IMG/VR virus record: IMGVR_UViG_3300045988_180775
Strand: one strand, 5' to 3'
DNA: 64,000 nt
Source: a virus
Position numbers and translations under genes: made by a program. The notes under the pieces are model-generated. The model did not search any database and was not told the DNA's origin. It saw only the letters and a list, made by a program, of their open reading frames with translations. Position 1 is the stretch's first letter; each line of letters begins with the position of its first letter. Of this stretch, positions 8,441-53,227 are shown piece by piece.

Positions 8441-8444
8441 AGGT

Positions 8445-18855: not shown

Positions 18856-18884
18856 ATTATACCACACAATAGCTTACTTGTCAA
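18856..18884 (-). promoter_or_regulatory. sigma-A-type promoter (TTGACA-17-TGGTATAAT) upstream of sigma gene
   Basis: Minus strand TTGACAagtaagctattgtgTGgTATAAT. Member of a 7-copy promoter family. Confidence 0.65.
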
Positions 18885-18932
18885 TCAAAAGGCCGCCAGC
18901 GATGTGCTGACGGCCTTCCAGGATGGGAGAGA

Positions 18933-19436
18933 CTATTTTTGCTGTTGTGCTCGGAGTTGCTCCACCTCCGCCCTCCAGCGCGGTGTGGCCGTACTGATTG
19001 CCTCAACGGTACTTGGCGTGGTGGAGAGAGCCAGAATATCGGCTTTCGTCTTCACTCCTTTCAGACGGCGACACATCTCCTCGTAGGTCGTGCTGTTGTC
19101 TGCCGTAATCCAACAACCGCAGATGTCGTTTGAGCCGTCCTCGTTGTGCCGGCTGGCGGTAGTGGGAATCTCAATGCACCAGAGGGCGAACTCGGAATAT
19201 TCGGTGCTGCGGAATACATCCTGCACAAAGGGGTTTGTTTTCTTGAGCTGCTCCACAAGAGGACGCACGCAGTTTTTTTCCTGTTCATCCCTCCTTTGCG
19301 CAAGCCATATATTTTGCAATTCGAGAAAATGCGTTTCCTCGCCGCTTAATCTTTTCCCGTCAGCCGCCTTCTGAATGAGTTGCTTTCTCCGCTCCAAAAG
19401 CTCTTCAGCCGTTGGGAACTTACCGTTTTCAAACAT
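18933..19436 (-). CDS. hypothetical protein (167 aa)
   Basis: ORF. Confidence 0.5.
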   Translation of the reverse strand: MFENGKFPTAEELLERRKQLIQKAADGKRLSGEETHFLELQNIWLAQRRDEQEKNCVRPLVEQLKKTNPFVQDVFRSTEYSEFALWCIEIPTTASRHNEDGSNDICGCWITADNSTTYEEMCRRLKGVKTKADILALSTTPSTVEAISTATPRWRAEVEQLRAQQQK

Positions 19437-19440
19437 GATA

Positions 19441-19956
19441 TTATACCTCCAAAATTTCGATTCCGTACTTTTCCAACATAAGTTTGCGCTTCATGAGGTA
19501 CTTTTCGGTTCGTTTTCCCTTCGCGTCTTCCACGATACGCTCACCGTTGCGGAGATAGACGAAATCTGCCTTGTAGACCATTGGTCGAACCCGCTTGCCA
19601 TTTGGCCGTGTATAGCCCTCGACCAGCGTGAAGTCCTGCTGGAGCCGCAGGTCCTGGATTGCACCAACCTTGTACTGCAAATACAGTTCATCGAAGCGCC
19701 GTGCCTCCCGCTTGCTGGGGAATTTCACGGTTTCTCCATCCACCACGCGAATGACCTTTTTATTGCGATATTTGGATGGCTCAGCAGCGTCCGCTTCTTT
19801 CGGCTGTTTTTGCCTTTTCTGTGCTTCCGGCTGTTTTTTTGCTCGCTGCTGTTTCTGCTCGTCGAGCTTTGCACGCACCTGAATCTGTGCGGAAAGCGGC
19901 AGGCTATTGATGTCAATACCCACCTTCAGTTCCTCCGCCTGTTTGTGGCGCAGCAT
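19441..19956 (-). CDS. DUF1064-family phage protein (putative nuclease/resolvase-like)
   Basis: C-terminal YRNKKVIRVVDGETVKFPSKREARRFDELYL...DFTLVEGY...YKADFVYL...VEDAKG matches the DUF1064 pattern as I recall it. The K/Q-rich N-terminus may be over-called. Confidence 0.55.
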   Translation of the reverse strand: MLRHKQAEELKVGIDINSLPLSAQIQVRAKLDEQKQQRAKKQPEAQKRQKQPKEADAAEPSKYRNKKVIRVVDGETVKFPSKREARRFDELYLQYKVGAIQDLRLQQDFTLVEGYTRPNGKRVRPMVYKADFVYLRNGERIVEDAKGKRTEKYLMKRKLMLEKYGIEILEV

Positions 19957-20311
19957 TTTGGTTGCTTCCTTCTCGCAGCAGAATCAAATTCATGACCCTC
20001 CATACCGTCCAGATACACAGATGGCGAACTATGCTTCTGCTGGTGCCGTGCAGGTCGGCGATTTGCGAAAACGTCATTCTGTCACGAAAATACTTTTGGA
20101 CGATATCGCGGTTTCGCTCAGGAAGTGTGTCCAGCGCTTCATCGAACATCTCGTTAAAGCCCGGTGTAAATGAAATTTGATTCTTACCCCAGGCTGAAAT
20201 TTGATTTTTACACCAGGCAAAGGATGTATCGTACATAATGGCCGCCTTCCGCCACTCCTCCGGGGCGAACTCAGGCTTGTTAATCTTGTCTGTCGTTTGT
20301 TTCTTTGTCAT
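19913..20311 (-). CDS. small sigma-70 region-4-like HTH protein (132 aa)
   Basis: LPERNRDIVQKYFRDRMTFSQIADLHGTSRSIVRHL resembles sigma region 4/ECF HTH. Trimmed to ATG 20311 with RBS GGAAGGAGAAACAAAA. Contains a 24-bp tandem duplication (20171-20218). Confidence 0.45.
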   Translation of the reverse strand: MTKKQTTDKINKPEFAPEEWRKAAIMYDTSFAWCKNQISAWGKNQISFTPGFNEMFDEALDTLPERNRDIVQKYFRDRMTFSQIADLHGTSRSIVRHLCIWTVWRVMNLILLREGSNQNAAPQTGGGTEGGY

Positions 20312-21404
20312 TTTTGTTTCTCCTTCCAACAATCTCTCTTCGTGAGCTGCGCCACAGCATGAGCAGCATCTCGCTGACCGGTCTGGTTCGGTCCTTCCTC
20401 ACGGCTTTCCTCACGCATCGCAGATGCCCGCCGTCCGGGCAAAGCACACCGACGCCGTATGGCACAGTATCCTTCACCGCTTCGAAGACGTCTGCGGGCA
20501 TAACGTAGTAGTTGTAGTCCGCGATGAAGTTGTGCCCGTTAGGAGATTTGAAATCCTCCACAGAGGACTTGACCTCGTAGGCGTAGAAGTCCCCCTTCTC
20601 AATGCCGGAGGTCGAATTGTTGAGCGGCTGAAAGCGCATATAGTCCACGCGGATTTTGTGGTTCGTAGAGTAGTCGAATGTGACCTCTCTCGCCCAGTAG
20701 ATGCGTGGGTCGTTGCGCGGGTCGATGTATCGCTCCAGCATGGCAGAGAGCTGGCGAGTGTGTTCCTTCCGGGTGAAGGCATCACTCGTTTCCGGACAGA
20801 ATTGAGCTGGCTTTCCAAGGATGAAATGGAACGGCAGAGCCTTTTCCAGTACGTCGATAATATTCTGAAGGGTCCCCTGCCCGCATTGGCGCAGATTCTT
20901 CAGTTTGCCGCTCTCTATCAGTCGAACAACATCGCCGATACTTTGGGCACCACTGAACATAAGGCAGTTCTTGGTGCGAGTCGAGAAATTGAGGCACTGA
21001 AACGGAACAGAATCGCACAACTCCTCGATTTTTTTCCGGTTGCCATTCTCAATGGCTTCCTTCAAAGCAGAGGCGAGAGGGCTGCCTGCAAACCGGCGCA
21101 TTTCTTTCAGGATACCCCCCGCATATTTGGGGTGACGCAGCCTCCTTATGGCGAGGTCGAAGCAAGAGTGGAACTTGCCGATGTCAATTTCCAGTGCGTT
21201 TGCGCATTGTGTTGGTGTAAGACCGTCGCGGTAGCGTTTTAAGATAGCTTCCCGCTCCAACTCAGGGAATGTGGCGATGGCAGCGTCTACAGCTGCGTCG
21301 AAAGAGTCGGAGAACTCAGCACACGGCATACACAAGCAATCCTGCATCAAATTCTTTCGCCATTCTACTGACGAGCGAAGCAGGAAACGCTCCTCAGTGT
21401 TCAT
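20280..21404 (-). CDS. three-part protein: sigma region-4-like HTH, then RNAP alpha-CTD-like helix-hairpin-helix, then C-terminal PD-(D/E)xK-like domain
   Basis: EREAILKRYRDGLTPTQCANALEIDIGKFH (region-4-like). LNFSTRTKNCLMFSGAQSIGDVVRL...LKNLRQCGQGTLQNIIDVL (alpha-CTD-like). GDFYAYEVKSSVEDFK (D..E.K nuclease-like). Confidence 0.55.
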   Translation of the reverse strand: MNTEERFLLRSSVEWRKNLMQDCLCMPCAEFSDSFDAAVDAAIATFPELEREAILKRYRDGLTPTQCANALEIDIGKFHSCFDLAIRRLRHPKYAGGILKEMRRFAGSPLASALKEAIENGNRKKIEELCDSVPFQCLNFSTRTKNCLMFSGAQSIGDVVRLIESGKLKNLRQCGQGTLQNIIDVLEKALPFHFILGKPAQFCPETSDAFTRKEHTRQLSAMLERYIDPRNDPRIYWAREVTFDYSTNHKIRVDYMRFQPLNNSTSGIEKGDFYAYEVKSSVEDFKSPNGHNFIADYNYYVMPADVFEAVKDTVPYGVGVLCPDGGHLRCVRKAVRKDRTRPVSEMLLMLWRSSRREIVGRRNKNDKETNDRQD

Positions 21405-21616
21405 TCCGCTCCAACCTCCTCGTCATACTCTTCCGGGGTGATGATTTCTATGTCTTCCGCACTGTAGCCCAGTGCGTCAAGACACAGAAGTTCCGCGACC
21501 TTCTCTTTGTTGATGGATGCAGCAATTTCCTCGTATGAGATATCCCTCTCTGCCGCCTCAAAGCTCAGCTGTACCACAAATGTGGGCAGCCGAAAACAAA
21601 CTCTGTAATTTGCCAT
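21401..21616 (-). CDS. small acidic hypothetical protein (71 aa)
   Basis: ORF. 4-nt overlap with upstream gene. Confidence 0.4.
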   Translation of the reverse strand: MANYRVCFRLPTFVVQLSFEAAERDISYEEIAASINKEKVAELLCLDALGYSAEDIEIITPEEYDEEVGAE

Positions 21617-21631
21617 TTTTTGAATCCCTCC

Positions 21632-22129
21632 TTAAAAATCGTGGACGTACTGCCAACTCTGCGGTGCTCTCGCAAGTGCGAAGCAGTCGAGGCTCTTGGG
21701 CCGGTCATAGGCCTGCACATCAGAGATGTGCCATCCGTATCCCACGCGGCCACAGAGGTAGTCCTCTGCTTGCTTCACGGTGAGGCAGGCGTCCTCATAC
21801 AGTTTCCCCGCTGGGGTGTAGTTTCCAGGTTGTGCGTTGACACAGTATTGAAGCGGCGCGTTGCTGCCCATATAGCCCACGCGCACCACACGGTCAATTT
21901 CGGTACAGGTAAACTCCCCTACCACAAGACCGTTTGCTTTGTAAATTTTGCCGCCGCTGTGGATTTCAAGAATTTCACCTGGGTTCTTTGTGCCCTTACA
22001 GGAGCAGTAGAGAAATACCATGAAGGGCGGCGTAAGGTTCGGTCTGGACAGGCGCAGCTCCACGGTCTTCTGGCCCGACAGGATTTTCTGGAGCCACTCA
22101 GGTCGGATGCTGAGCATGATGTTTTTCAT
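21632..22129 (-). CDS. ASCH (PUA-like) domain protein
   Basis: MKNIMLSIRPEWLQKILSGQKTVELR matches the ASCH N-terminal pattern. Trimmed to ATG 22129 with RBS GGAAAGGAGTTTTCCT. Confidence 0.6.
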   Translation of the reverse strand: MKNIMLSIRPEWLQKILSGQKTVELRLSRPNLTPPFMVFLYCSCKGTKNPGEILEIHSGGKIYKANGLVVGEFTCTEIDRVVRVGYMGSNAPLQYCVNAQPGNYTPAGKLYEDACLTVKQAEDYLCGRVGYGWHISDVQAYDRPKSLDCFALARAPQSWQYVHDF

Positions 22130-22170
22130 AGGAAAACTCCTTTCCGACGGCAAAAGCCGCCTTGTCTTGC

Positions 22171-22198
22171 TTGACAAAGCGGCTTGCTGGTGTATAAT
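22171..22198 (+). promoter_or_regulatory. plus-strand sigma-A consensus promoter (TTGACA-16-TGTATAAT)
   Basis: TTGACAaagcggcttgctggtgTATAAT. The only strong plus-strand promoter seen. Drives a short transcript ending at the terminator about 90 nt downstream. Confidence 0.6.
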
Positions 22199-22204
22199 AA
22201 AAGC

Positions 22205-22296
22205 AGAAAGGCGATACCGATAAGCGGTCAGCCTAAGAGAATAGAGTCAAACGAAATGACCGTCTTCCTTTGGCGAGGGGCGGTCATTTTCGTTTG
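22205..22296 (+). ncRNA. candidate antisense small RNA (type I antitoxin-like), about 90 nt
   Basis: Starts about 7 nt after the -10 box. Ends at hairpin gaccgtcttcc-tttg-gcgaggggcggtc (G-U wobbles favour plus-strand folding) followed by ATTTTCGTTT. Its 3' end overlaps the 3' end of the convergent 28-aa peptide gene. Confidence 0.5.
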
Positions 22297-22370
22297 CAAA
22301 TCTGAACTATCAGACCCACAAGGCCGATGATAACAAGAGAATACGCAAAAAGCGATTCGTAAGTAACCAT
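22284..22370 (-). CDS. 28-aa hydrophobic peptide, Fst/Ldr-like candidate type I toxin
   Basis: Unannotated ORF ATG...TGA encoding MVTYESLFAYSLVIIGLVGLIVQICKRK (polar N-terminus, TM helix, KRK tail). SD GGAGGGAGGTGAT sits 4 nt before ATG and is buried in stem cacttccct/agggaggtg. Own promoter lies upstream. Confidence 0.5.
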   Translation of the reverse strand: MVTYESLFAYSLVIIGLVGLIVQICKRK

Positions 22371-22452
22371 TGGCATCACCTCCCTCCACAGGGAAGTGCC
22401 GACCGCCTACCGTATATGGTAACGCCTTTCTGGCTCCTTTTGGAGCATTGTA

Positions 22453-22481
22453 ATCTTACCAAAAAGGCCCCGCTTTGTCAA
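22453..22481 (-). promoter_or_regulatory. promoter for the 28-aa peptide mRNA (TTGACA-17-TAAGAT)
   Basis: Minus strand TTGACAaagcggggcctttttggTAAGATtacaat. About 76-nt structured leader. Confidence 0.45.
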
Positions 22482-22644
22482 TTTCCGCCGCCCACGGTTT
22501 ATCCGCAGGTGGTTATTTTTTTGCCTCGGCTGCTGCATGGGGAAGCCGCACCCAGCCGCCCTTGTGACGAACAAGCTGGATTTTCTTCATAGGAGGCTGG
22601 GCCGGAGTTTCCGGCGCACCCGCCCGCCATTCGGCGGGGTAAAG

Positions 22645-22983
22645 CTAAAGAGCAGCGTCCTGATTGACAGGACATTCGAGACTCATGTTTTTTCTCTTCT
22701 CACAGGACTCTGCCTGCGACCACAAGCTGTTTGGTAGATTGAGCACCGTTACGAGGACATCCCCTGCAAACAGATAGACGTGCCGGTGATATACTCGAAT
22801 ATTGTTGATGGTTTTGTTTTTGAAGCGGATGGATGCAAGGTATCCATTCAGGTGGCCTCTGGTCTCCGAGTGCTTCACGCCAAAGTCAAAGGCTTTCTGT
22901 GCATTGCGCACGGCTGCTCTTTTGCCGAGACCAGCACGCTGTTTTGTACGCTTCCTCGCGTGTTTACTTACCTGCGCTGACAT
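22645..22983 (-). CDS. basic hypothetical protein (112 aa), doubtful
   Basis: Track ORF trimmed to ATG 22983 (MSAQVSKHARKRTK...). 20-nt out-of-frame overlap with upstream gene. Confidence 0.3.
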   Translation of the reverse strand: MSAQVSKHARKRTKQRAGLGKRAAVRNAQKAFDFGVKHSETRGHLNGYLASIRFKNKTINNIRVYHRHVYLFAGDVLVTVLNLPNSLWSQAESCEKRKNMSLECPVNQDAAL

Positions 22984-23566
22984 GGTTCGTATCATTCTGA
23001 TGGACAGACACCGCGTTGCGATTGGCCTGCCGAATGAGCGACAGGATATCGTCCAGCCTGTTTCCACCAAAGTACACAAGTAATGGCTGATACAGCGCCA
23101 ATACCGCCACAACAAAGCAGACGGCATCAGCAGTACCCGCAGGGAAATCCGCCCGTGCCATAACTACAGAATACAGGCTTGCCAGCAGTACAATCGCCGC
23201 TGTGAGGGAAAGAACGGTATGGAAGAATAAAGCGAGCGCCTTACTCACAGCACCGCAGTTGGCGAACTTCTTCTCCACGAAATACTTCGCAGCCGGCAAG
23301 CCCACCAGGACTGCCAGCAGCACAAGCTGGATACCAAGAGAGACTTTGGGAATCTGGAACTCCCGGCTCTGGAAGAACAGCGTCACGCGGCTGCCGACGT
23401 TCAGTGTTTCAATGAGTAGGAATAGCCACAGAACCGCAAGCACCAGCGGTCTCGGCGCATTGAGCTTGCCCACGGCGAAATCGCACAACACCCATAGCAC
23501 AATGAGTACCGCAAGCTGCGGCATCATGAGCCGCCCTAATTCCAGAGCAAAACTAACAAAAGTCAT
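22964..23566 (-). CDS. multi-pass membrane protein (200 aa)
   Basis: Five to six hydrophobic helices (LAVLIVLWVLCDFAV, LVLAVLWLFLLI, LVLLAVLVGLPAA, LTAAIVLLASLYSVV, VCFVVAVLALYQPLLVYF). Confidence 0.55.
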   Translation of the reverse strand: MTFVSFALELGRLMMPQLAVLIVLWVLCDFAVGKLNAPRPLVLAVLWLFLLIETLNVGSRVTLFFQSREFQIPKVSLGIQLVLLAVLVGLPAAKYFVEKKFANCGAVSKALALFFHTVLSLTAAIVLLASLYSVVMARADFPAGTADAVCFVVAVLALYQPLLVYFGGNRLDDILSLIRQANRNAVSVHQNDTNHVSAGK

Positions 23567-23624
23567 TGTTCATTCCTCCTGAAAAATTTACTGATTCCTG
23601 TCATTTATTCGGCGGGAGTGCCGA

Positions 23625-23996: not shown

Positions 23997-23998
23997 TT

Positions 23999-25867
23999 TC
24001 AGTCTCCTTTCCCCGCCGCCAGCAGACGCGGCACAAATTCAGATACTTCCAGTTTTTCTTCGTACATCTTTCGGCAGGTGATGATTTCCAGTTCGTGCCG
24101 CGCCCGCGTCGCTCCGACGTAGAATGCTCGTGCATCCTCTTCGTCATCCTCCGCGTCGCGGTCGTCGCTGTCACCGGGAATGATGCCAGATACCATGTCG
24201 ATTAAGATGACCTTATCGAACTCCAGACCTTTACTGGAATGGATGGTGGTAACGGTCACATTGGAATCCTCGCAGCCCTTATATTCCGTGATGTTTTTGA
24301 GTGCGGCAAGAAAGTCCGGAATGGTCGAATATTTCTCCGCTACCATCTTCAAAATGCTGATACGCAGGCGGATAAACTGCTCGGAAGCACCGGCGTCAAT
24401 TTTCTTTGTCAGCCAGTTGTTCCAATAGTCGAGCACGAACAGAATGTAGTCGATAGCCTCGACGGGCTTCTTCTTCGCAATGTCTGAAAAGTCCCTCGGC
24501 AGGCATCCTATTTTCCATGTGTCTCCCTTGCCGCCCGCGAATTTCATCGCGGCGCTGAATACGTTCCGGCACTCCCCTTCTTCAACCGCCTCGATAATGC
24601 GCTTGGCGGTGACGCCCTTCATGTAAAGGCCCATTTTGTAGTACAGATGCCCAAAAGCGGTGGTGTCAGCAGGGTTCAGGGCCAGAAGCATAAAGTCGAG
24701 CAGGTCCCGAATGACGTAGTTCGTCATGAAGGTCCCCGTCGCATCTCTGGTTTGAACCTGAATGCCGTTCATCTGGAGCAGATTGATAAGAGGGATGGCA
24801 GAGTCGTTATTCCGATACAGAATTGCCAGGGATTCATCCGGCTTCTGATTCCGGATGCGCTCCAGCAGAAGCTCCGCCTGCTGTTCCATGCGGTCGATGC
24901 AGGTCACGACGATGGCTCCGTCCTTTTGGGACTGGGCACGCATATTCTTGTCGAGTCGTCTCGTATTCAGTTTGATGAACTGATTGGCCGCTGAGACGAT
25001 GTTCCTGTCGCTGCGGTAATTGGTCTCCATACGCAGGATACAGGGTTCGTTATAGTTGCTCTGGAAGTCCAGCAGTGCGGCAGGATACGCGCCTCGGAAG
25101 CCGTAGATGCTCTGGTCTTCGTCTCCGACCATGAAGATATTGCCATTCCGCCCAACCAGCTTCTGGACGATAAGGTGCTGGACATACGAGGTGTCCTGCG
25201 CCTCGTCCACACTCACATAGCGGAACTTCTCATGCGCCCGCTGTAAGATGTCCGGGTATTCATCCAGCAAATCATTTGCCATGAGAAGCTGGTCATCAAA
25301 ATCCATCAAATCATGCTCGCTCATGTAGAGCTTGTACGCCTGGTAAAAAGCAGAAAAATCAAGGCTGTTTTCTTCGATGGTCTCAATTTCCTGAAAGGTC
25401 ATGAGCTTGTTTTTTACTTTGCACACCTTCTGCGCGAGAGACCGCACCTGTGAATCACTGGGATACTCCGGAAGCATCTTAGCCGCAATAGCACGGACGA
25501 TGCTCTCGTTGTTCGGCACCAGCTTTGGTACATGAATGTACTTCTCTTTCGCACAGGTATTGATGACGGACAGGCAGAAGCTGTTGATAGTGGAGAATGC
25601 CGGTATCCGTTCCGGGGCAAACTTCTTTATGAAACGCTCCTTCATTTCCTTTGCCGCAGCGCGGGTATAAGTGATGGTCAGGATATTCTCCGGCTTTACG
25701 CCTGCGACATACATGAGATAGCCGGTTCTCGCTACGATGACCGTAGTTTTTCCGCTTCCCGGCACAGCAAGGAGCAGCGTTGCTCCATTCACGCGCCGGA
25801 CAGCGGCTTCCTGCTGTTCGTTGAGTCCGCAAATATTGAATTTTTGGCAAAAAGTGTGGTAATCCAA
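23999..25867 (-). CDS. UvrD/PcrA-family superfamily-1 DNA helicase
   Basis: Motif I AVPGSGKTTVIVAR, Ia TITYTRAAAKEMKER, II VSVDEAQDTS, III GDEDQSIYGFRGA. The track start lies upstream of the mapped promoter. Likely start is TTG 25867 (RBS GGGGGTG) or a later codon. Confidence 0.85.
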   Translation of the reverse strand: MDYHTFCQKFNICGLNEQQEAAVRRVNGATLLLAVPGSGKTTVIVARTGYLMYVAGVKPENILTITYTRAAAKEMKERFIKKFAPERIPAFSTINSFCLSVINTCAKEKYIHVPKLVPNNESIVRAIAAKMLPEYPSDSQVRSLAQKVCKVKNKLMTFQEIETIEENSLDFSAFYQAYKLYMSEHDLMDFDDQLLMANDLLDEYPDILQRAHEKFRYVSVDEAQDTSYVQHLIVQKLVGRNGNIFMVGDEDQSIYGFRGAYPAALLDFQSNYNEPCILRMETNYRSDRNIVSAANQFIKLNTRRLDKNMRAQSQKDGAIVVTCIDRMEQQAELLLERIRNQKPDESLAILYRNNDSAIPLINLLQMNGIQVQTRDATGTFMTNYVIRDLLDFMLLALNPADTTAFGHLYYKMGLYMKGVTAKRIIEAVEEGECRNVFSAAMKFAGGKGDTWKIGCLPRDFSDIAKKKPVEAIDYILFVLDYWNNWLTKKIDAGASEQFIRLRISILKMVAEKYSTIPDFLAALKNITEYKGCEDSNVTVTTIHSSKGLEFDKVILIDMVSGIIPGDSDDRDAEDDEEDARAFYVGATRARHELEIITCRKMYEEKLEVSEFVPRLLAAGKGD

Positions 25868-25897
25868 TGCAGCGCACCCCCGAACTTTTATATTTAC

Positions 25898-25926
25898 ATT
25901 ATACCACACATTAGCTTGATTGTCAA
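25898..25926 (-). promoter_or_regulatory. sigma-A-type promoter (TTGACA-17-TGGTATAAT) for helicase
   Basis: Minus strand TTGACAatcaagctaatgtgTGgTATAAT. Confidence 0.65.
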
Positions 25927-26102
25927 TTCGTTTCAGAAAAGCTAAGCGCCCCAAGACAAGGAGCGCTTGGCTTGCTGGCTGACGTCTACTGCTTCTCAAT
26001 ATAGCCGCTGACAGGCTCTGCGTACATATTGTCGTCTGTGACAGGCTGGTAGCTTTGGGTTTTCAAACACAGTATATCACATAGAATTTTGTGTGCAAAT
26101 AG

Positions 26103-28524: not shown

Positions 28525-28544
28525 GGTCGGTCCCTCCCTGTGCT

Positions 28545-29738: not shown

Positions 29739-29758
29739 AATGATATCCTCCTGTCCGG

Positions 29759-30439
29759 CTATGGAAGCTCCCAGTGAATTGGTGTGCTTCCCATCTGTTC
29801 CAACAATCTGTTAGTTTGAGAAAAAGGTCTGCTGCCGATGAATGCTTTTACTACATCGTTTCCTTTTCGCGCCCCAAGGGGACTTGGGTGACTTGAAAAT
29901 ACCACACCCTTATCAGGCAGTTGTGAAATTGGAATTCCGGCAAGAAAGGCTCTTGCCTGTCCGCCCCATGTGATGAACACAATCGGCTGCGGCAGCTTCG
30001 CACACGCCGCGAATACCGCCTGCGTGAAATTCTGCCACCCCCAGTTTCTATGGCTGTTTGCGGTCCCATCCTGTACTGTAAGTACGGTATTGAGCATGAG
30101 CACGCCTTGTTCCGCCCAGTGAGTCAGGTCTCCACTTTTCGGATACGGACAACCAATGTCACTGACCAGTTCCTTGAAGACGTTTTTGAGCGACGGTGGA
30201 AAAAGCACACCACGGTTTACTGAAAAGCACAGCCCATTCGCCTGCCCCGCCTCGTGATATGGGTCTTGCCCGACAAGGCATACCTTCACCTTCTCCGGCG
30301 TGGTAAGCTCCAACGCACGGAATATCTGCTCCTGCGGCGGGTATATTGTGCGACCCGCTTCGCGCTCACAGGCAGCCCGCTTGGCAAGCTCAGCTCCAAG
30401 CGCCTGTACATCCTGTGGGATTACATCGCTCCACATCAC
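29759..30439 (-). CDS. ung: uracil-DNA glycosylase, family 1
   Basis: GQDPYH water-activating motif, HPSPLGA leucine-loop-type motif and overall UNG length. Start GTG 30439 or ATG 30436. Confidence 0.9.
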   Translation of the reverse strand: MMWSDVIPQDVQALGAELAKRAACEREAGRTIYPPQEQIFRALELTTPEKVKVCLVGQDPYHEAGQANGLCFSVNRGVLFPPSLKNVFKELVSDIGCPYPKSGDLTHWAEQGVLMLNTVLTVQDGTANSHRNWGWQNFTQAVFAACAKLPQPIVFITWGGQARAFLAGIPISQLPDKGVVFSSHPSPLGARKGNDVVKAFIGSRPFSQTNRLLEQMGSTPIHWELP

Positions 30440-30474: not shown

Positions 30475-30503
30475 ATTATACCACACATTAGCTTAAAAGT
30501 CAA
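30475..30503 (-). promoter_or_regulatory. sigma-A-type promoter (TTGACT-17-TGGTATAAT) for ung
   Basis: Minus strand TTGACTtttaagctaatgtgTGgTATAAT. Confidence 0.65.
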
Positions 30504-30536
30504 TTTAATGCGTAGGGAAAACGGCCTTCGCGTGAT

Positions 30537-31076
30537 TCACGCGAAGTACCACTCCCCATTGCTGAATTCAACGAACTCTTCCTCGGCGGCGAAATGCACC
30601 TCCAAAAAAAGCTCTCCTTCGCCATTATCTACGACCACCACATCGTAGTCGTCGTCTCCATAGTAGGAGATGATATCGTGATGCTTATTCGCTTTCTCGT
30701 CGATGATGCACATATCGCGCGGCACCTTGTAGAGCAACGCTCCATCCTTCCGCCGCGTACAGCACGCGGCATCGTAGAAAAGGAAAGTCTCTCTGTTGTC
30801 TTCGTCGGCGTTTTTGAATTCCCTAATACCGTTCTTTTCTTTCTCCGCAAGTTCGTTAAGCAAAGCTACGACCTTCAGCGTTTTTACATTCAACATAGAG
30901 TTCCTCCTCAGTAATTCGTACAGCATCCCATAGAGATACTCCGGCGGGCTGCATTTCTCCTGCTCCCAGTTTCGGACTGTTCCCAGAGGAATTCCGGTGG
31001 TAAGGGCAAATTCACGCTGGGACAGCTTAAAATCCTGACGCTGCTTTCGGATGCGGTTCTGCTCGTGTTCAATCAT
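30537..31076 (-). CDS. XRE-family (Cro/CI-type HTH) transcriptional regulator
   Basis: LSQREFALTTGIPLGTVRNWEQEK helix-turn-helix. Trimmed to ATG 31076. Confidence 0.7.
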   Translation of the reverse strand: MIEHEQNRIRKQRQDFKLSQREFALTTGIPLGTVRNWEQEKCSPPEYLYGMLYELLRRNSMLNVKTLKVVALLNELAEKEKNGIREFKNADEDNRETFLFYDAACCTRRKDGALLYKVPRDMCIIDEKANKHHDIISYYGDDDYDVVVVDNGEGELFLEVHFAAEEEFVEFSNGEWYFA

Positions 31077-31128
31077 ACTTATTTCAACCACCCTTAATAA
31101 TTTGTAGTGCGCAATCTAAGTATTTTTC

Positions 31129-31158
31129 AATATAGCACCGGCATTCTGGCTTGTCAAG
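31129..31158 (-). promoter_or_regulatory. promoter for XRE regulator gene (TTGACA-18-TATATT)
   Basis: Minus strand TTGACAagccagaatgccggtgcTATATT. Confidence 0.5.
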
Positions 31159-31249: not shown

Positions 31250-32743
31250 TTATTCAGCCTTGCCGTCCGCGTCATTCTTGGCAGGCGGTTCCTGCGGCTG
31301 TGTGGGAGCTGCCGTATTGTCCGGCTTGTCCATGACGATGACAGGAGAGGTCTGCTGGGCCGTGAGCTTGCCGCCGATGGCTCCGGCAATAAGAGACTTA
31401 ATATCCAACCCCATTCCGGAAGAAAGGCCCTCTGTGACCTGTGTGGTGCCGTTGATGATGTCACCCAGCAGCTTCGCGCTGTTGCCTTCGCCGTACATCG
31501 TGATTTTATCCACCTTGCTGAGAGGTTCAGCGACATTCTTGGCGATTTCCGGCAAAGCGTTCATAATCATCTCAACGATGGCCGCGTCGCCGTATTTCTT
31601 CATAGCTTCTGCCTTCTTGTCGATACCTTCTGCTTCAGCAACGGCCTTGGCACGAATGACATTGGCTTCCGCCTCACCGACGGCGGCAATACCAGCAGCT
31701 TCCTGCTCGCGGGCGTACTTTACGGCGTCGGCTTCCGCTCTCTTTGCATCCGCCTCACGTTGGCGCTCGAAAAGCTGCGCCTCCGCGTCCTTCTGACGTC
31801 GGTAGAGGTCGGCATCCGCCTGTGCGCGGACCTCCGCATCCAGAGACTGCTTCTTAACTTCGACCTCTTTGTTTTTCAGCTCCGCTTCGCGTTCCGCCTT
31901 GGCGATTTGCGCATTGACGGTAGCCGTCTCAATGGAGCGCTGCTGTTCCTGCTGCTGGATGGTATACGCGGCATCGGCCTCGGCCTTCTTCGTATCCTCC
32001 TGAACCTTGAGTTCAGCTTTGCGGATGGAGAGGTCATTCAGCTTCTGAGCGATTTGCATTTCGGACTCGACTTTGGCATCGTTAGACGCCTTGGCCGCCT
32101 GCGCCTGAGCGATAGCCACGTCACGCTCCGCCTCAGCTTTGGCGATGGCAGCATCCTTCTGGATTTTGCTCATATTGTCCTGACCGAGGGAGTTGATTAA
32201 GCTGTTTTCGTCCGTGACACGCTGGATATTGCAGGAGATGATTTCGATACCGAGCGCACTCATATCTGTCTGTGCTTTTGACTGTACCTCGTCACCGAAT
32301 TTCTTTCGGTCATTGCAGATTTCCTTGAGAGAGATGGTGCCGATGATTTCGCGCATATTGCCCTGGAGAGAATCCGCGATGGCGCAGCTGAAATCCGCTT
32401 CTCGCATATTCAGAAAGTTCTTCATGGCGAGCTGGATGCCTTCCGGGTCCGTCTTGACTCTGACCTTGGCAACCGCGTCCACATCGACGCCGATGAAGTC
32501 GTTGGTCGGGATATAGCCTTCCGACTTGATGTCGATGGAGATTTGCCGGACAATGAGCTTATCTACACGCTCCAGAAATGGAATTCGGATACCTGCTCGC
32601 CCAATCAGAACGCGGGGCTTTTTTCGTATACCGGAAATGATGTAGGCCACATCGGGCGGAGCCTTTACATAGCCCAGAAGAAAGATGATTACCACAAGGG
32701 CCACGACTGCAATTACAGGCAGCAGCTTCACGAGATTTTCCAT
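31250..32743 (-). CDS. flotillin-like SPFH/band-7 protein (YqiK/FloT-like)
   Basis: N-terminal TM, SPFH core (YIISGIRKKPRVLIGRAGIRIPFLERVDKL...) and long EA-rich coiled coil (AKAEAERDVAIAQAQAAKASNDAKV...). Confidence 0.85.
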   Translation of the reverse strand: MENLVKLLPVIAVVALVVIIFLLGYVKAPPDVAYIISGIRKKPRVLIGRAGIRIPFLERVDKLIVRQISIDIKSEGYIPTNDFIGVDVDAVAKVRVKTDPEGIQLAMKNFLNMREADFSCAIADSLQGNMREIIGTISLKEICNDRKKFGDEVQSKAQTDMSALGIEIISCNIQRVTDENSLINSLGQDNMSKIQKDAAIAKAEAERDVAIAQAQAAKASNDAKVESEMQIAQKLNDLSIRKAELKVQEDTKKAEADAAYTIQQQEQQRSIETATVNAQIAKAEREAELKNKEVEVKKQSLDAEVRAQADADLYRRQKDAEAQLFERQREADAKRAEADAVKYAREQEAAGIAAVGEAEANVIRAKAVAEAEGIDKKAEAMKKYGDAAIVEMIMNALPEIAKNVAEPLSKVDKITMYGEGNSAKLLGDIINGTTQVTEGLSSGMGLDIKSLIAGAIGGKLTAQQTSPVIVMDKPDNTAAPTQPQEPPAKNDADGKAE

Positions 32744-32776: not shown

Positions 32777-32805
32777 ATTATACCACATAACACCTTGCAA
32801 GTCAA
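32777..32805 (-). promoter_or_regulatory. sigma-A-type promoter (TTGACT-17-TGGTATAAT) for flotillin gene
   Basis: Minus strand TTGACTtgcaaggtgttatgTGgTATAAT. Confidence 0.65.
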
Positions 32806-32897
32806 TTTTGCATAGAAGAAGACAGGTGAGACGCTGAACACGTCCCACCTGTCTGCCCAAACGATATAACTTCAATCGTGTGCAGCCTTTGCACGTC

Positions 32898-42131: not shown

Positions 42132-42218
42132 GAGAATGCAAGCCTCCTTTCAAAAAAACGTTTCAAAGAAAAGCGCGGCTCCGACTCCGAGTGGAGGGGA
42201 GCCGCACCGAAACGGTCA

Positions 42219-43472
42219 TCAGGCGTTGGGGAAATTCATGGGGCCTTGGGTGCCGATGCACCGGCACAGAATCATCCCGTTGTCCAAATAATTAAGAACC
42301 TTCAGCCGGACGGTCGAACCACGCGGAGGCTCGCTCCCAAGGAATTTCGCAGGCATATTGTTCACGAGTACGGGTAAATCGTACATCTTGATATACGCCA
42401 ACACATTGATATTCCCAGGCTGTTTCTTACTCGCAGCCACGGAAGATACGATGCCAAACACGATGGAGCCGATTGGAAGAGCGCTGCGCATTTGCTTCGC
42501 ACGCTCCAACTCAGGCTGCTTACAGTTCACCTCGACGATGTGGTGGCCGTCTTTCTCTTTGATGATTTGCTCTACCTGAACCATAATTTCCTGCCCCACC
42601 TTGTATTTGGTTCTCGCGTCAACAAGGTACTCGAAAGTCAGGGCGTGGAGCGGCACCCGCGTATCGACTCCGCCAACCACAACGGCAATGCTGTCGCGTG
42701 CCACAGAGGTAATCTGAGCACGAACAAAATCGCCTTCCTGAATGCGCGGGCCATCACCGTCAGGTCGGTCTCCGTAATTTGTCTCCTCAATAATGTCGAG
42801 CGCAGCCTTACGGGACGCGACAATGACATAAGCCGGAACTCCGGCTTCAGCATCGGTGCTTTCATCGACCTGGATAGTCGTAATCACCATCGGCACATTC
42901 AGGGAATACAGCTTTGCCGCCATCGTAGCGCAGCGGTTGACGTACTCTTCACGACCGGCCTTAGTTTCCATATTTACCGTCGCCATATCAATGGGATTCT
43001 TCTGGTAGAACTCGTCAAAGGGAATGGAAACCTTGTAGCGGCCCTCTACGAGCGCGATAATCATGACACAGGGAACTTCCGAATCCACATCGTTTCGCTG
43101 CTCGATATGAGAGACGAGACCATTTACGATGCTGTGGTTTTTAGCTGCGACTGTCAATGAAGAAAGTCCGATAAGAAACTCCTGATAGGCACGGACAGAC
43201 TCACTTCTTTCCGCTCTCCGCCGTCTTGCCTCCCTCAGTACATCAGCACGGGTAGGCTTCCCTTTGGGAGCGGTTTCCTCCGCGCCGGACTGCTCAGGTT
43301 CGTTTCCATCAAGCCCCTCAAAGAGCGCCTGCATCTCTGCGTCCTCTTCATTGGGGGCCTGCGTTTCAACGCTCTCTGCGGTGGAGGATTGGACGTTGCT
43401 CTGTTCCTCAGTGGGAGCCTGCACTTCAGCGTTTTCCTCGATTGAAGCAGTTGCTCCATCTTTTTTGACCAT
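42219..43472 (-). CDS. S1-domain RNA-binding protein (two S1-like repeats) with acidic N-terminus
   Basis: GDFVRAQITSVARDSIAVVVGGVDTRVPLHALTFEY...VGQEIMVQVEQI (S1-like) and a second GSIVFGIVSSV...GSTVRLKVLNYL repeat. Confidence 0.55.
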   Translation of the reverse strand: MVKKDGATASIEENAEVQAPTEEQSNVQSSTAESVETQAPNEEDAEMQALFEGLDGNEPEQSGAEETAPKGKPTRADVLREARRRRAERSESVRAYQEFLIGLSSLTVAAKNHSIVNGLVSHIEQRNDVDSEVPCVMIIALVEGRYKVSIPFDEFYQKNPIDMATVNMETKAGREEYVNRCATMAAKLYSLNVPMVITTIQVDESTDAEAGVPAYVIVASRKAALDIIEETNYGDRPDGDGPRIQEGDFVRAQITSVARDSIAVVVGGVDTRVPLHALTFEYLVDARTKYKVGQEIMVQVEQIIKEKDGHHIVEVNCKQPELERAKQMRSALPIGSIVFGIVSSVAASKKQPGNINVLAYIKMYDLPVLVNNMPAKFLGSEPPRGSTVRLKVLNYLDNGMILCRCIGTQGPMNFPNA

Positions 43473-43524
43473 TGCTATTGCCTCCTTTGCGTAATTTGGG
43501 GCATCTTAATGCCCTACACTTTTA

Positions 43525-43552
43525 TTATTACAACCTTTCGTTCAAAAGTCAA
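43525..43552 (-). promoter_or_regulatory. sigma-A-type promoter (TTGACT-16/17-TAATAAT) for S1-domain gene
   Basis: Minus strand TTGACTtttgaacgaaaggttgTAATAAT. Confidence 0.45.
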
Positions 43553-43629
43553 TTTTTTCGCAGATTTTCAAAAGCAAAAGGCCTATGAACGGAATCCCGC
43601 TCATAGGCCTTCTACTTGCTTTTCAATGA

Positions 43630-44151
43630 TTACCCGATGATAGTGAGTACATAGGACGATTCGATGTCCGTTCTCGGAATCAATCCGACAATGGAACTGC
43701 GGCTGTCAAGGCTGTTGTTTCGATTATCCCCCAGCACAAAGTAATAGCCATCCTCCACGGTGAGAGGAAACGATATACCATCGTCATATTCGATGTTGGT
43801 CGGGGTATTCGTGTACGGTTCACTCAGCGCGATTCCGTTGCGATAGACCACCCCCTGTTCGAAATCAATGTCGATGGTATCACCGGGGCAACCAATAATG
43901 CGCTTAACGATATTTTCATCCAGACCGCTCGAATTGCAAACAACAATGCTCTCAAACTCCAGATTCGGCTTAATGTGATTTGTCAGAATCACACTATTGT
44001 CCGCAAGCGTCGGCACCATAGAAGGGCCGGACACCACAACAACATTGAACAGGATTCGGAACAAAAGAAGAGCGATAATAAGCCCCTCCAGGGAACCCTT
44101 GAGCACTTCACGGCTCCATACAGTGCGGTTGGTGAGATTTTGTTCTTTCAT
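43630..44151 (-). CDS. type I signal peptidase (S26 family)
   Basis: Catalytic-Ser box GPSMVPTL and GDNRNNSLDSR box. Trimmed to ATG 44151 with RBS AGAGGTGATTCCA, because track GTG 44160 lies too close to the TSS. Confidence 0.85.
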   Translation of the reverse strand: MKEQNLTNRTVWSREVLKGSLEGLIIALLLFRILFNVVVVSGPSMVPTLADNSVILTNHIKPNLEFESIVVCNSSGLDENIVKRIIGCPGDTIDIDFEQGVVYRNGIALSEPYTNTPTNIEYDDGISFPLTVEDGYYFVLGDNRNNSLDSRSSIVGLIPRTDIESSYVLTIIG

Positions 44152-44176
44152 TGGAATCACCTCTTCTTTACGCTTA

Positions 44177-44205
44177 TATTATACCACACTTTATCTTATT
44201 TGTAA
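44177..44205 (-). promoter_or_regulatory. sigma-A-type promoter (TTTACA-17-TGGTATAAT) for signal peptidase
   Basis: Minus strand TTTACAaataagataaagtgTGgTATAAT. Confidence 0.6.
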
Positions 44206-44293
44206 AGTATCGAATGAAGTGACCTTACATACAACGGCGCAAGCAAAAAGGCACGTCAACGAAATGTTGGCGTGCCTGTGGCCTGTGCTGATA

Positions 44294-46570: not shown

Positions 46571-46578
46571 TTACCTCC

Positions 46579-47904: not shown

Positions 47905-47925
47905 GCAGAGCCTCCTTTCCTCGCG

Positions 47926-49251: not shown

Positions 49252-49352
49252 AAAATCACTCCTTTCCGTGTTGTAATGAGCCTAATGATTGTGTCCTATA
49301 CCGCCACCCGCCGCCCCGGTGAAAATGCTGGACGGCGGGTGGGTTTGTGGTG

Positions 49353-51998: not shown

Positions 51999-52027
51999 GA
52001 GCTATTTCACCTCCACTTCCGCTGCCG

Positions 52028-52438
52028 TCACCAAGTAAAATCTGGATGTGCGGGGTCCCATTTGACCCCGTTCAACGAGTTGTATGCTGCTGAAATGACC
52101 AGCGGCAATAAGTACAACGCCATGAGCGCAATCAGGGACATCTTTATCATGGAGAAGCCCCTTTCCGCATCTTTCTCAGACCCAAAAAAAGCAATAAGGC
52201 CCCCGACAGTAATCGTGACAAGTGCGAATGGGGCTGCCATGCTGAGAATAAATTTGTAGGTTGCGCTGATGCGGTCCCGATACTCCCGCATAGACGAATC
52301 AGATACATTCGTACCAAACTCTACATCCGGGGACCACGGGTCTGCCGCAAACACAGGCGCAGAAAGCGTCAGGCTGACCGACACGATGCAGAGAGCTACT
52401 AAAATGGGAATCAAAAATCTATGAATTCGTTCATCCAT
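52028..52438 (-). CDS. small polytopic membrane protein (136 aa) of T4SS block
   Basis: Three to four hydrophobic helices. Confidence 0.5.
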   Translation of the reverse strand: MDERIHRFLIPILVALCIVSVSLTLSAPVFAADPWSPDVEFGTNVSDSSMREYRDRISATYKFILSMAAPFALVTITVGGLIAFFGSEKDAERGFSMIKMSLIALMALYLLPLVISAAYNSLNGVKWDPAHPDFTW

Positions 52439-52624
52439 AAAAAATAGGGCAAGGATACCCCCGCCCTACAAAGCCGGCGGAAGAACTGCCCGTCCTCCTT
52501 TCCGAAAATAGAAAACAAAAGAGGGCTTGCGGAATCCGGTGTGGGCCGGACTCCTGACAAGCTCTCTCTATATTGACAACCACAAAGCAAACGCAGTGGA
52601 TGACCTGCTCAACAGCCTGAGCTA

Positions 52625-53038
52625 TCAACCAAAGATTTGGTTCGTGGAGTTGTCAGCAATATTGCCAATCGCGCCGGTAACGGTCGTAACGAACAGCGGA
52701 GCAAGGAAGATGACGCCAACAACAAACAGAATCTTGATGATGTTGTCCTTGCACTTTTCCATGCCCTTTTCCGTACCGAGCAGAGCCTTCACAACATTGA
52801 AGCCAATGCCGACCAGAGCCAGAGGCGCGGTAATCGCTTGCAGCATATCCCAGATGCCCTTCAGAATGGTCTTGCCGGCCGACGTGATTTGCTGGAAGCC
52901 CTGCGCGGTTTCCGTATTCGCCGCAAAAGCGGTGACGGTAAACATAGCAGCCGTCAGGCACACGACCGTTGCTAAAGAAACGATGCGGGCGCGGACGCGC
53001 TGTCTCTCTTGAATTTGTTCGAGATTGCTATTCATCAT
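52625..53038 (-). CDS. small membrane protein with VirB2/TrbC-pilin-like topology (137 aa)
   Basis: Trimmed to ATGATG 53038 with RBS AGGAGCG (the track start is a TTG in the leader). Charged N-terminus, two hydrophobic segments, Gly-rich core. Confidence 0.45.
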   Translation of the reverse strand: MMNSNLEQIQERQRVRARIVSLATVVCLTAAMFTVTAFAANTETAQGFQQITSAGKTILKGIWDMLQAITAPLALVGIGFNVVKALLGTEKGMEKCKDNIIKILFVVGVIFLAPLFVTTVTGAIGNIADNSTNQIFG

Positions 53039-53199
53039 AGAAAAATCGCTCCTGTCTCGCGCCCAGAATATTTTTCGCTCAAAGTCAAATCCCTCACCCA
53101 CATGGGGAATCCAGCTCCGGGCCAGAGGTGCTTGACGCGGCGCTCCTCTTAGTCTAACTTTCCCACCCTTTCTCAAAAAGTCAAAATTCAGGCCTCCTT

Positions 53200-53227
53200 C
53201 TTATACCACACATGGGCAACACTTTAA
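53200..53227 (-). promoter_or_regulatory. extended -10 promoter (TGGTATAAG) with weak -35
   Basis: Minus strand TTAAAGtgttgcccatgtgTGgTATAAG. Shares the conserved TGTGTGGTATAA core of the promoter family. About 150-nt leader. Confidence 0.4.

Follow-up and report, generated by a model that had tools for sequence, protein, structure and literature searches.

Similar predicted sigma-A-type extended −10 promoters at the gene junctions of an integrated conjugative element from gut Oscillospiraceae

Lytic phages carry families of early promoters, such as those of T4 and T5 and of the host-takeover module of SPO1. In the IncP-1 kor regulon, operators for KorA and KorB overlap many promoters, and these palindromes are conserved across plasmids. 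Mosaic phage genomes have conserved boundary sequences at their module junctions. For Bacillus subtilis, sigma-A promoters with a TRTGn extended −10 have been compiled (Helmann 1995; Voskuil and Chambliss, cited in PMC6570832).

The window described here (the whole 64-kb stretch of DNA that was analysed) belongs to an integrated conjugative element from gut Oscillospiraceae, which has an RpoD-like sigma factor gene of its own. Its promoters are like B. subtilis −16-region promoters in having a −35 TTGACA, a 17-bp spacer, TRTG at −17 to −14 and TATAAT; they are unlike them in carrying G at −13 and at −18 (A at 32777), for which baselines show no preference, and in that several members share spacer and start-region sequence. 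As in lytic-phage early families and in the IMG/VR contigs L344 and L493, many near-consensus host-type promoters lie in one orientation on one mobile genome, their within-genome similarity takes in spacer and initially transcribed sequence, and each heads a short unit. Unlike a lytic phage, the carrier here is integrated and conjugative, and it has a type IV secretion system (T4SS) and an RpoD-like sigma factor of its own; the resemblance is described at the level of sequence. The IncP-1 kor regulon, which is the model behind an operator idea put forward in a preliminary description of this DNA, likewise belongs to a conjugative element with several promoters alike beyond their hexamers, but here we saw no symmetry by eye, no extra conservation in relatives, and none between lineages. 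Short conserved non-coding sequences at gene-module edges, with coincident break-points in relatives, also recall mosaic phage genomes, although the conserved unit here is a functional-looking promoter that might additionally take part in recombination.

Five minus-strand sites, at 18856, 25898, 30475, 32777 and 44178, combine a 17-bp spacer with an exact copy of the 11-mer TGTGGTATAAT, which occurs five times on the minus strand of the window and not at all on the plus strand. TGnTATAAT likewise occurs at these five promoter sites and nowhere else in the window. The preliminary description had counted seven near-identical promoters; we instead recognize five clear members and two degenerate ones, because 43524 is family-like around the −35 and nowhere else, and 53200 has poor hexamers. 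Its statement that five minus-strand sites read TTGACA/T-17 applies to four of them, as the −35 at 44178 is TTTACA. The predicted promoters, the hairpins upstream of them and the genes that they would serve are as follows.

18856–18884, minus strand: promoter P_sig, TTGACA-agtaagctattgtg-TGGTATAAT, 12/12 hexamer positions plus TG, predicted start about 18849
18887–18919, minus strand: hairpin and U-run, a predicted intrinsic terminator, directly upstream of P_sig (−24.9 kcal/mol, z = −4.2)
17712–18830, minus strand: RpoD/SigA-like sigma factor, first gene after P_sig (Pfam Sigma70_r2, r4)
25898–25926, minus strand: promoter P_hel, TTGACA-atcaagctaatgtg-TGGTATAAT, predicted start about 25891
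25944–25968, minus strand: terminator-like hairpin and U-run upstream of P_hel (z = −2.0, the weakest of seven)
23999–25867, minus strand: UvrD/PcrA-type helicase with a TTG start, downstream of P_hel (Pfam UvrD-helicase, E = 2e-60)
30475–30503, minus strand: promoter P_udg, TTGACT-tttaagctaatgtg-TGGTATAAT, predicted start about 30468
30513–30558, minus strand: hairpin and U-run upstream of P_udg (−28.2 kcal/mol, z = −4.7)
29759–30439, minus strand: uracil-DNA glycosylase (UDG) superfamily gene, downstream of P_udg (Pfam UDG, E = 1.6e-14)
32777–32805, minus strand: promoter P_flo, TTGACT-tgcaaggtgttatg-TGGTATAAT, predicted start about 32770
32820–32854, minus strand: predicted intrinsic terminator upstream of P_flo (15-bp stem, z = −6.7)
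31250–32743, minus strand: SPFH/flotillin gene, downstream of P_flo (Pfam Band_7 and Flot)
44178–44206, minus strand: promoter P_spa, TTTACA-aataagataaagtg-TGGTATAAT, predicted start about 44171
44249–44277, minus strand: hairpin and U-run upstream of P_spa (z = −3.3)
43630–44160, minus strand: signal peptidase I (Pfam Peptidase_S26, E = 1e-28), likely start ATG at 44151
43524–43552, minus strand: degenerate promoter P_S1, TTGACT-17-AATAAT followed by a leader hairpin, 8.7 bits
43572–43617, minus strand: predicted intrinsic terminator upstream of P_S1 (−35.2 kcal/mol, z = −6.8)
42219–43472, minus strand: S1-domain protein gene, downstream of P_S1 (Pfam S1, E = 1e-7)
53200–53228, minus strand: degenerate promoter P_pil, TTAAAG-17-TATAAG, with ATGTGTGGTATAA in common with the family
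53246–53278, minus strand: predicted intrinsic terminator upstream of P_pil (z = −3.4)
52625–53176, minus strand: TrbC/VirB2-like pilin (weak Pfam matches), first gene of a T4SS sub-operon after P_pil

All seven sites thus have a hairpin and U-run upstream, with z from −2.0 (P_hel) to −6.8 among the predicted terminators, and a ribosome-binding site and start codon within about 20 to 45 nt downstream. Pfam agrees with the earlier naming of the sigma, helicase, ung, flotillin, signal peptidase and S1 genes, whereas the gene assigned to a T4SS sub-operon matches TrbC and T4SS_pilin weakly, in both cases below curated cut-offs. A public assembly collection has the exact flotillin protein in 457 of its indexed blocks; the element is common in gut bacteria, and the finding, though real, is a fairly ordinary one. 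The TGTGGTATAAT string also appears in Enterococcus and Streptococcus gene-regulation papers, where it may not be a mapped promoter.

The five clear sites match the hexamers at 11 to 12 of 12 positions with a 17-bp spacer, compared with 10/12 at 43524 and a poor match at 53200 (−35 TTAAAG, 3/6; −10 TATAAG). In hexamers, spacing and TRTG they have the makeup of sigma-A/sigma-70 extended −10 promoters, and each lies between genes and points toward a ribosome-binding site and gene downstream, so that their earlier description as near-consensus promoters of this type ahead of the named genes holds at the level of prediction. Searches of the window gave the same picture. The 20-mer ATTATACCACACATTAGCTT with up to three mismatches finds 18856, 25898, 30475 and 44178, where shuffles expect 0, and TTGACW-N14-TGNTATAAT with up to two mismatches finds eight matches against 0.53 expected, all eight on the minus strand. 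The five sites score 65 to 77 bits on a position weight matrix for which they were the training set; in the rest of the window the best score is 8.7 bits, at 43524, and no other site exceeds 0.7.

Scoring of spacer conservation, as the preliminary description had suggested, gave a mean pairwise identity at −29 to −19 of 0.63 for the five sites. Random sets of five TTGAC-N12-GTGTGGTATAAT promoters that are unrelated average 0.35 ± 0.08, and 18 of 5000 such sets reach the value of the five sites. Over the 12 nt that follow the −10, identity is 0.53 versus 0.30 (6 of 5000 sets reach 0.53), and in the same comparison the five show no similarity in the 10 nt preceding the −35. Pairwise local alignments over ±300 nt confine the excess over unrelated promoters to about −36 to +5, and flanks and coding sequence beyond these limits show no similarity between sites. 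The closest pair, P_udg and P_spa, is 91% identical over 33 nt, whereas 32777 departs further from the others in its spacer (AAGGTGTTA) and at −18, where A replaces G. Shared sequence outside the hexamers is therefore present at several sites, but the long string AAGCTAATGTGTGGTATAATATA that had been given for it is exact at 30475 only. Not all of it lies outside RNA polymerase contacts, as had been claimed: the TGTG at −17 to −14 is the Gram-positive −16 TRTG element, which RNA polymerase contacts (PMC6570832, citing Voskuil and Chambliss). TGTG-G-TATAAT is present in 5/5 sites, whereas TRTG is found in 37% of baseline unrelated promoters. AAGNT at −26 to −22 occurs in 0/118 and 2/138 unrelated consensus promoters and is therefore a lineage mark rather than an RNA polymerase feature.

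A second lineage (L104, L108, L552 and L555) is syntenic with this element at 28 to 62% amino-acid identity. At the orthologous junctions for sigma, the UDG operon, signal peptidase, S1 and pilin it carries TTGACy-17-TGGTAnAAT with AT-only spacers that are similar to one another (AATwTAwTATTAtr) and unrelated to those of this element, and its downstream motif is ATTGT. P_sig is kept in close relatives and has a lineage-2 ortholog ahead of the sigma homolog (L104 20233); the lineage-2 ortholog of P_spa is at L555 12467. At the two junctions where our members are degenerate, this distant relative has good promoters, TTGACC-17-TGGTACAAT before the S1 gene (L555 13297) and TTGACT-17-TGGTAAAAT before the pilin gene (L555 3761); P_pil itself is kept in the close relatives L553 and L554.

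Among close relatives, nine orthologous promoter groups comprising about 125 copies were compared. Variable positions number 15/99 in the spacer (−29 to −19) and 31/288 in the flanks (p = 0.28), versus 1/135 in the −35 and TGnTATAAT (p = 1e-5 versus spacer). Four of the nine groups are variable at −26 (the A of AAG), and the positions of AAG, C-23, T-22 and T-19 are all variable, although in this small sample none of the 15 variable spacer sites falls at −25, −24, −21 or −20. P_hel has seven haplotypes among 42 copies, with every change outside the hexamers and TG, and in P_flo CGG replaces TGG in one rare haplotype. Mosaic junctions lie at or adjoin these promoters in relatives, as in the L102 helicase allele and the L187 UDG leader.

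We lean, with some confidence, toward the view that these are strong promoter cassettes of the sigma-A-type, Gram-positive extended −10 class, related by descent and homogenized within each lineage, for which a dedicated operator is unnecessary. Each junction would run from intrinsic terminator to promoter, to a leader of about 20 to 30 nt, to a strong ribosome-binding site, and the cassettes would divide a one-directional gene array into independently started transcription units headed by genes for the RpoD-like sigma factor, UvrD-type helicase, UDG, flotillin, signal peptidase, S1-domain protein and pilins. The sites, judged by their sequence, would fire and be read by the host sigma-A. Their similarity may have three layers: TGTG at −17 to −14 as an RNA polymerase contact, an AT-rich spacer and A-rich start region of the kind usual for strong promoters, and AAGCTAAT in the spacer with ATAAGCnTAAAG downstream as marks of descent from a common core cassette about 40 bp long. 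This cassette would have been duplicated or converted among junctions within a lineage and would now be drifting, and the spacers are most likely alike through such copying or conversion rather than selection. The duplicated promoter module that had been offered as an alternative to an operator thus fits better than the operator, with the copied unit limited to the core promoter (about −36 to +5). Nevertheless, if the spacer is neutral, the greater likeness of paralogs in one lineage than of orthologs between lineages still calls for an explanation, and near-consensus promoters before transfer genes would be costly if never repressed.

On another view, a repressor encoded by the element, with the HTH protein at 30537–31091 as one candidate, would use the spacer and start-region sequence that the sites share as its operator and silence all units jointly while the element sits in the chromosome. 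Under such a scheme the lineage-2 spacers would represent a different immunity specificity, and co-evolution of operator and repressor would be expected to give similarity that, as here, is found only in the polymerase-covered region and is lineage-specific in both lineages. Repression is plausibly needed where consensus promoters sit on an integrated element, and a putative HTH_3 protein (a weak match, below the Pfam cut-off) is encoded between two of the promoters. We nonetheless regard a shared operator as improbable. Close relatives vary in the spacer as often as in the flanks, including all the AAG, C-23, T-22 and T-19 positions, while their HTH and sigma proteins are 98 to 99% identical, and L102 has a different spacer (AAGGTTAAG) at its helicase promoter yet the same regulators. 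No dyad or direct-repeat symmetry was seen by eye in the aligned sites, where a 4-bp AGCT core is the sole palindrome; the HTH gene's own promoter (31129–31157) is without the motif; and the low-complexity, AT-only lineage-2 spacers, unrelated to those here, are unlike a specific operator. Recent segmental duplication including flanking coding sequence, which had been named as a competing account, and chance likeness of ordinary promoters have the resemblance itself in their favor and nothing more, and we give them almost no weight. The former is ruled out by alignments that end at about −36 and +5 within ±300 nt, and the downstream genes come from unrelated families; the latter is ruled out by the rarity of the spacer identity among random sets and by motif counts far above shuffles.

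The cassette reading leaves one feature aside. G at −13 is found in 5/5 promoters here and in 10/11 in lineage 2 (15/16 in all), versus 19% (26/138) and 20% (33/168) of unrelated TGnTATAAT baselines, which may differ from the preference of host SigA. The sigma-A consensus gives no account of this G, which leaves room for recognition by the element's own sigma factor. The promoters could be the cognate set of that RpoD-like protein, either exclusively or beside host SigA, with G at −13 and GTG at −18 to −16 as the bases it would read; its gene lies behind one such promoter, which would create positive feedback and a phage-like early program. The encoded factor is group-1-like, with conserved −10 and −35 recognition segments (FSTYATFWIRQNITRA; LTRERVRQV), best solved relatives that are SigA chains, and matches to NCBIfam RpoD models (E = 1e-59 to 1e-67) that are below equivalog cut-offs. 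Its region 3.0, which reads the extended −10, is diverged (IRKPIYVAEGRRS versus IRIPVHMVETINK). GTGTG is rare among baseline promoters (1/138), and the window's second repeat family has GGTAT (CGGTATGCT) at the equivalent place. Still, we hold a dedicated role for this sigma factor to be unlikely. With their perfect host-type consensus, the promoters should be readable by host SigA in any case. In lineage 2, TGG is retained at the promoters even though region 3.0 of the sigma factor is canonical there (VRIPVHMVDT), and therefore the base is not tied to the diverged segment. A sigma gene dependent on its own product could not be started in a new host.

Sets of several near-consensus, co-oriented host-type promoters that are alike beyond their hexamers are found here, in lineage 2 and in unrelated viral contigs, among them L344 and L493, each with its own family of near-identical consensus promoters.

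Scans for shared motifs returned a compact promoter family in the window, referred to here as class A. The preliminary description had listed seven near-identical promoters; five stand as clear members according to motif scans and a weight matrix, whereas the remaining two, at 43524 and 53200, are degenerate.

Class A promoter sites in the window
18856, minus strand, P_sig, clear member
25898, minus strand, P_hel, clear member
30475, minus strand, P_udg, clear member
32777, minus strand, P_flo, clear member
44178, minus strand, P_spa, clear member, −35 hexamer TTTACA
43524, P_S1, degenerate, TTGACT-17-AATAAT
53200, P_pil, degenerate, ATGTGTGGTATAA in common with the family but −10 TATAAG and −35 TTAAAG

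The 11-mer TGTGGTATAAT occurs at the five clear sites on the minus strand and nowhere on the plus strand, and TGnTATAAT is found within the window at those five sites only. With up to three mismatches, the 20-mer ATTATACCACACATTAGCTT recovers four sites in the window and none in shuffled sequence, and TTGACW-N14-TGNTATAAT with up to two mismatches yields eight matches, all on the minus strand, against 0.53 expected. With a weight matrix trained on these same five sites, they score 65 to 77 bits, followed by 43524 at 8.7 bits and all remaining sites at 0.7 or less. P_spa had been read as carrying TTGACA or TTGACT, which its TTTACA contradicts. The interpretation of the sites as sigma-A extended −10 promoters agrees with every sequence-level feature considered, and they are predicted to fire. 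The five sites are a new example of an already known kind of feature.

Pairwise local alignments reaching 300 nt to either side confined the similarity among the sites to approximately −36 to +5, which excludes a segmental duplication that carried coding sequence along. The proposed duplication of a promoter module is thus supported for a core some 40 bp long, but not beyond it, where flanks and coding sequence lack similarity. For comparison, we drew unrelated TTGAC-N12-GTGTGGTATAAT promoters from IMG/VR at random in 5000 sets of five. Mean pairwise identity across the spacer (−29 to −19) is 0.63 in class A versus 0.35 ± 0.08 in the random sets, a value reached by only 18 of the 5000, and chance resemblance was therefore rejected. 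Identity over the 12 nt past the −10 is likewise elevated (0.53 versus 0.30; 6 of 5000 sets), and the same comparison gave no similarity among the five sites in the 10 nt ahead of the −35. The conservation beyond the hexamers noted initially is therefore real.

Part of this conservation reflects contact with RNA polymerase. The TGTG at −17 to −14 is the Gram-positive −16 TRTG element, as presented in PMC6570832, which cites Helmann 1995 and Voskuil and Chambliss 2002; our literature search supported TRTG and returned nothing on the element that holds the window or on the class A family. Among 138 distinct perfect TTGACA-N14-TGnTATAAT promoters from IMG/VR, whose other positions were not selected on, TRTG is present in 37% and G at −13 in 19%, GTGTG occurs once, and AAGNT at −26 to −22 occurs twice. 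A second baseline comprised 1.29 Mb of chromosomal UvrD/PcrA loci from other Clostridia (genome-scan matches beyond the top two), in which TGG was found in 33 of 168 TGnTATAAT sites and GTGTGGTATAAT was absent. G at −13, G at −18, the spacer AAGnT, and the downstream ATAAGCnTAAAG are, by these sequence counts, specific to the family and not part of the general sigma-A consensus. A search of IMG/VR for AAGNT-N3-GTGTGGTATAAT gave 90 stretches, most of them in contigs unrelated to the element, and the largest unrelated group appears by eye to be coding sequence (KVWYN).

All seven sites have a stable hairpin followed by a U-run closely upstream (z-scores of −2.0 to −6.8, the feeblest being that of P_hel), and a Shine-Dalgarno sequence and start codon follow no more than roughly 20 to 45 nt past the −10. 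The junctions are therefore organized as cassettes in which a terminator is followed by the promoter, a short leader, and a ribosome-binding site, the layout expected if every promoter opens its own predicted transcription unit. The leader of the S1-domain gene (43473–43523) contains a short hairpin, gggcattaagatgccc, right behind the promoter; a distant relative (L555, ~13330–13370) also has a leader hairpin directly after the promoter of its S1 gene, ccgggatatatagcccgg, which is unrelated to that of the window. The helicase begins with TTG in the window and in most copies, and with ATG in the copy from a cultured isolate (L107, ~9990–10003).

It had been suggested that the conserved spacer contains a shared operator. 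We gathered orthologous copies in close relatives by alignment rather than by motif, obtaining about 125 copies in nine promoter groups; a metagenome scan from the helicase gene start gave only about 15 relevant copies, and a search for helicase homologues gave clusters of 97 to 99% identity with no relatives of intermediate divergence.

Variable sites among orthologous class A promoter copies
Spacer, −29 to −19: 15 of 99
Flanks: 31 of 288
−35 hexamer and TGnTATAAT: 1 of 135

The spacer is indistinguishable from the flanks (p = 0.28) and sharply different from the combined hexamers and TG (p = 1e-5). Within AAG, the A at −26 varies in four of the nine groups, and variation also occurs at −29, −28, −27, −23, −22, −19, and −16. 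Moreover, one close relative (L102) has a different helicase promoter allele (AAGGTTAAGTGTGGTATAAT) despite sharing 99% identity with the window in its HTH and sigma proteins. This allele and the flank-level variation indicate no extra constraint on the spacer that could be detected, and the proposal of a shared operator was not supported. Nor does the class A set qualify as a kor-like operator regulon such as that of IncP plasmids. Among repressor candidates, the most obvious is the HTH_3 protein encoded at 30537–31091 (a weak match, below the Pfam cut-off). Its gene has its own upstream terminator and its own promoter outside the family (31129–31157, TTGACA-17-TGCTATATT), without the family spacer motif.

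A distant syntenic lineage, lineage 2, is represented by IMG/VR contig 3300045988_183320 (L104, L552, and L555) and by Pseudoflavonifractor sp. Marseille-P3106 (L108). Synteny extends over the transfer region, with proteins at 28 to 62% amino-acid identity (helicase, 55%). Promoters of the form TTGACy-17-TGGTAnAAT occupy the orthologous junctions ahead of the sigma, UDG operon, signal peptidase, S1, and pilin genes, which supports reading 43524 and 53200 as real promoter positions, though weakened ones. Spacers of lineage 2 bear no relation to those of the window (for instance, AATTTATTAT against AAGCTAAT in P_udg) and resemble one another strikingly (examples are AATTTATTATTATA, AATTTAATATTATA, and AATATAATATTATG); this lineage also has its own downstream motif, ATTGT. 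Between L104 and L108, spacer positions differ and the hexamers are identical.

Paralogs of one lineage thus resemble each other more closely than orthologs of the two lineages do, a pattern of concerted evolution in the core cassette. Spacer divergence increases from about 15% variable sites within the population to about 37% difference among paralogs and, by our estimate, roughly 70% between lineages, a gradient that fits copying or conversion of the core with drift afterwards. Less probably, the spacers may have co-evolved with a lineage-specific DNA-binding factor. Break-points of mosaic relatives lie at or adjoining class A promoters, resembling in this respect the boundary sequences of mosaic phages. 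Promoter cores evolve in concert within each mobile-element lineage, with only polymerase-contact bases constant between lineages, a finding of modest conceptual value.

Genes of the element were identified with Pfam and NCBIfam, and nearly all in the window lie on the minus strand.

Gene content of the element
Type IV secretion system: VirB4-like ATPase, coupling protein, CHAP/lysozyme protein
Type IV secretion system, weaker matches below cut-off: PrgI, pilins
Primase-type zinc-finger and DUF3854 protein (weak matches)
UvrD helicase, UDG, flotillin, signal peptidase I, S1-domain protein
17712–18830, full-length RpoD/SigA-like sigma factor, diverged region 3.0
19913–20332, sigma region 4-only protein, 139 aa
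20280–21404, 374-aa protein, sigma-4-like HTH (weak, below cut-off) and RNA polymerase alpha-CTD-like domain

The last three, which resemble transcription machinery, are consecutive. The window showed neither capsid nor tail genes. Megablast of a 25-kb portion against plasmid and phage collections gave no matches. The isolate Oscillospiraceae bacterium CM18GR_63 has the same element inside a contig of 570 kb (helicase 98% identical), and many assemblies from the human gut have it too, on contigs of up to 447 kb, which identifies it as an integrated conjugative element. It is plentiful in human gut metagenomes: 457 blocks of a public assembly collection contain one of its proteins, and a single helicase cluster counts 1973 members. 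IMG/VR files several copies as viral contigs (e.g., 3300029584_000162, 136 kb, and 3300045988_183320, 147 kb), and copies classed there as viral genomes carry a full conjugation apparatus.

The sigma factor of the element is nearest to group-1 SigA/RpoD and retains the −10 and −35 recognition segments (FSTYATFWIRQNITRA; LTRERVRQV). Divergence is seen in its region 3.0 (IRKPIYVAEGRRS), which recognizes the extended −10; in lineage 2, the sigma factor (37% identical) has a canonical region 3.0. G at −13 is present in 15 of 16 promoters over both lineages despite fully diverged spacers, and so this position is probably under selection. Measured against IMG/VR and other Clostridia, baselines that may not match the host's own SigA, the sigma-A consensus leaves this G unaccounted for. 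Together with the element-encoded RpoD-like sigma factor, it is the only feature with the potential to yield something new.

A second repeat family, class B, sits ahead of many small genes on the minus strand. Its modules of about 130 nt share CGGTATGCT without a −35 hexamer, a conserved AAGGAAGTATCAC leader, and a hairpin.

Class B cores in the window, all on the minus strand
2061–2092
8296–8327
12293–12324
15483–15514
17524–17555
56646–56677
61052–61083

In order, each module comprises GGTTCTTAGGTTC-like repeats, CCGGTATGCT, the conserved leader ACAAAGGAAGTATCACAAACATAAAG, the hairpin, UUUUAUAUA, and a ribosome-binding site. The hairpin stem shows compensatory changes between copies; Rfam at gathering thresholds gave no matches in the window, class B included. 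Class B is probably a separate promoter-plus-leader class, possibly reliant on element-encoded factors. In lineage 2, a class B-like leader (AAGGAAGTATC) follows ordinary TTGACy-17-TGGTAnAAT promoters (L104, 8260 and 13841; L108, 21618; L555, 354), and the spacers of two of the four are clearly GC-rich. Classes A and B therefore seem to be related, with spacer and leader as possible distinguishing marks. We regard as improbable a two-tier, phage-like programme in which class A is followed by a later class B dependent on element factors. Under such a programme, host SigA would recognize class A, the element's sigma factor would do so preferentially through G at −13, and class B would rely on the sigma factor, the region 4-only protein, and the alpha-CTD-like-domain protein; the lineage-specific spacers would then tell the classes apart functionally and would not be neutral.

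By analogy, the class A set resembles phage early-promoter families. Unrelated IMG/VR contigs (L344, L340, L363, L493, and L487) have their own sets of two to five near-identical consensus promoters, such as the five TTGACAAAATCTTCAAAGTGTGGTATAAT-like sites of L344, with spacers and initial transcribed sequences common within each set. For Oscillospiraceae, for which few genetic tools are available, the five class A cassettes are candidate parts that would combine a strong promoter, a leader, and a ribosome-binding site in compact form, and they map the likely transcription units of an element made up mostly of unknown genes.

Many relatives of the element carry variable intergenic insertions of 430- to 490-aa ORFs with RRXRR or RRXRR plus HNH domains (IscB-like). 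One lies between the homologs of 22645–23127 and 21632–22177 in five of them (L001, L101, L103, L107, and L187) and is missing there from the window and L102; others are at 8084–9376 and 13841–15322 of L003. Finally, 22171–22481 of the window is a possible type I toxin-antitoxin locus, in which a 28-aa hydrophobic ORF (MVTYESLFAYSLVIIGLVGLIVQICKRK; 22284–22370, minus strand) preceded by a promoter at 22453–22481 is opposed by a perfect plus-strand TTGACA-16-TATAAT at 22171–22198, with an apparent shared hairpin, judged by eye, between them.
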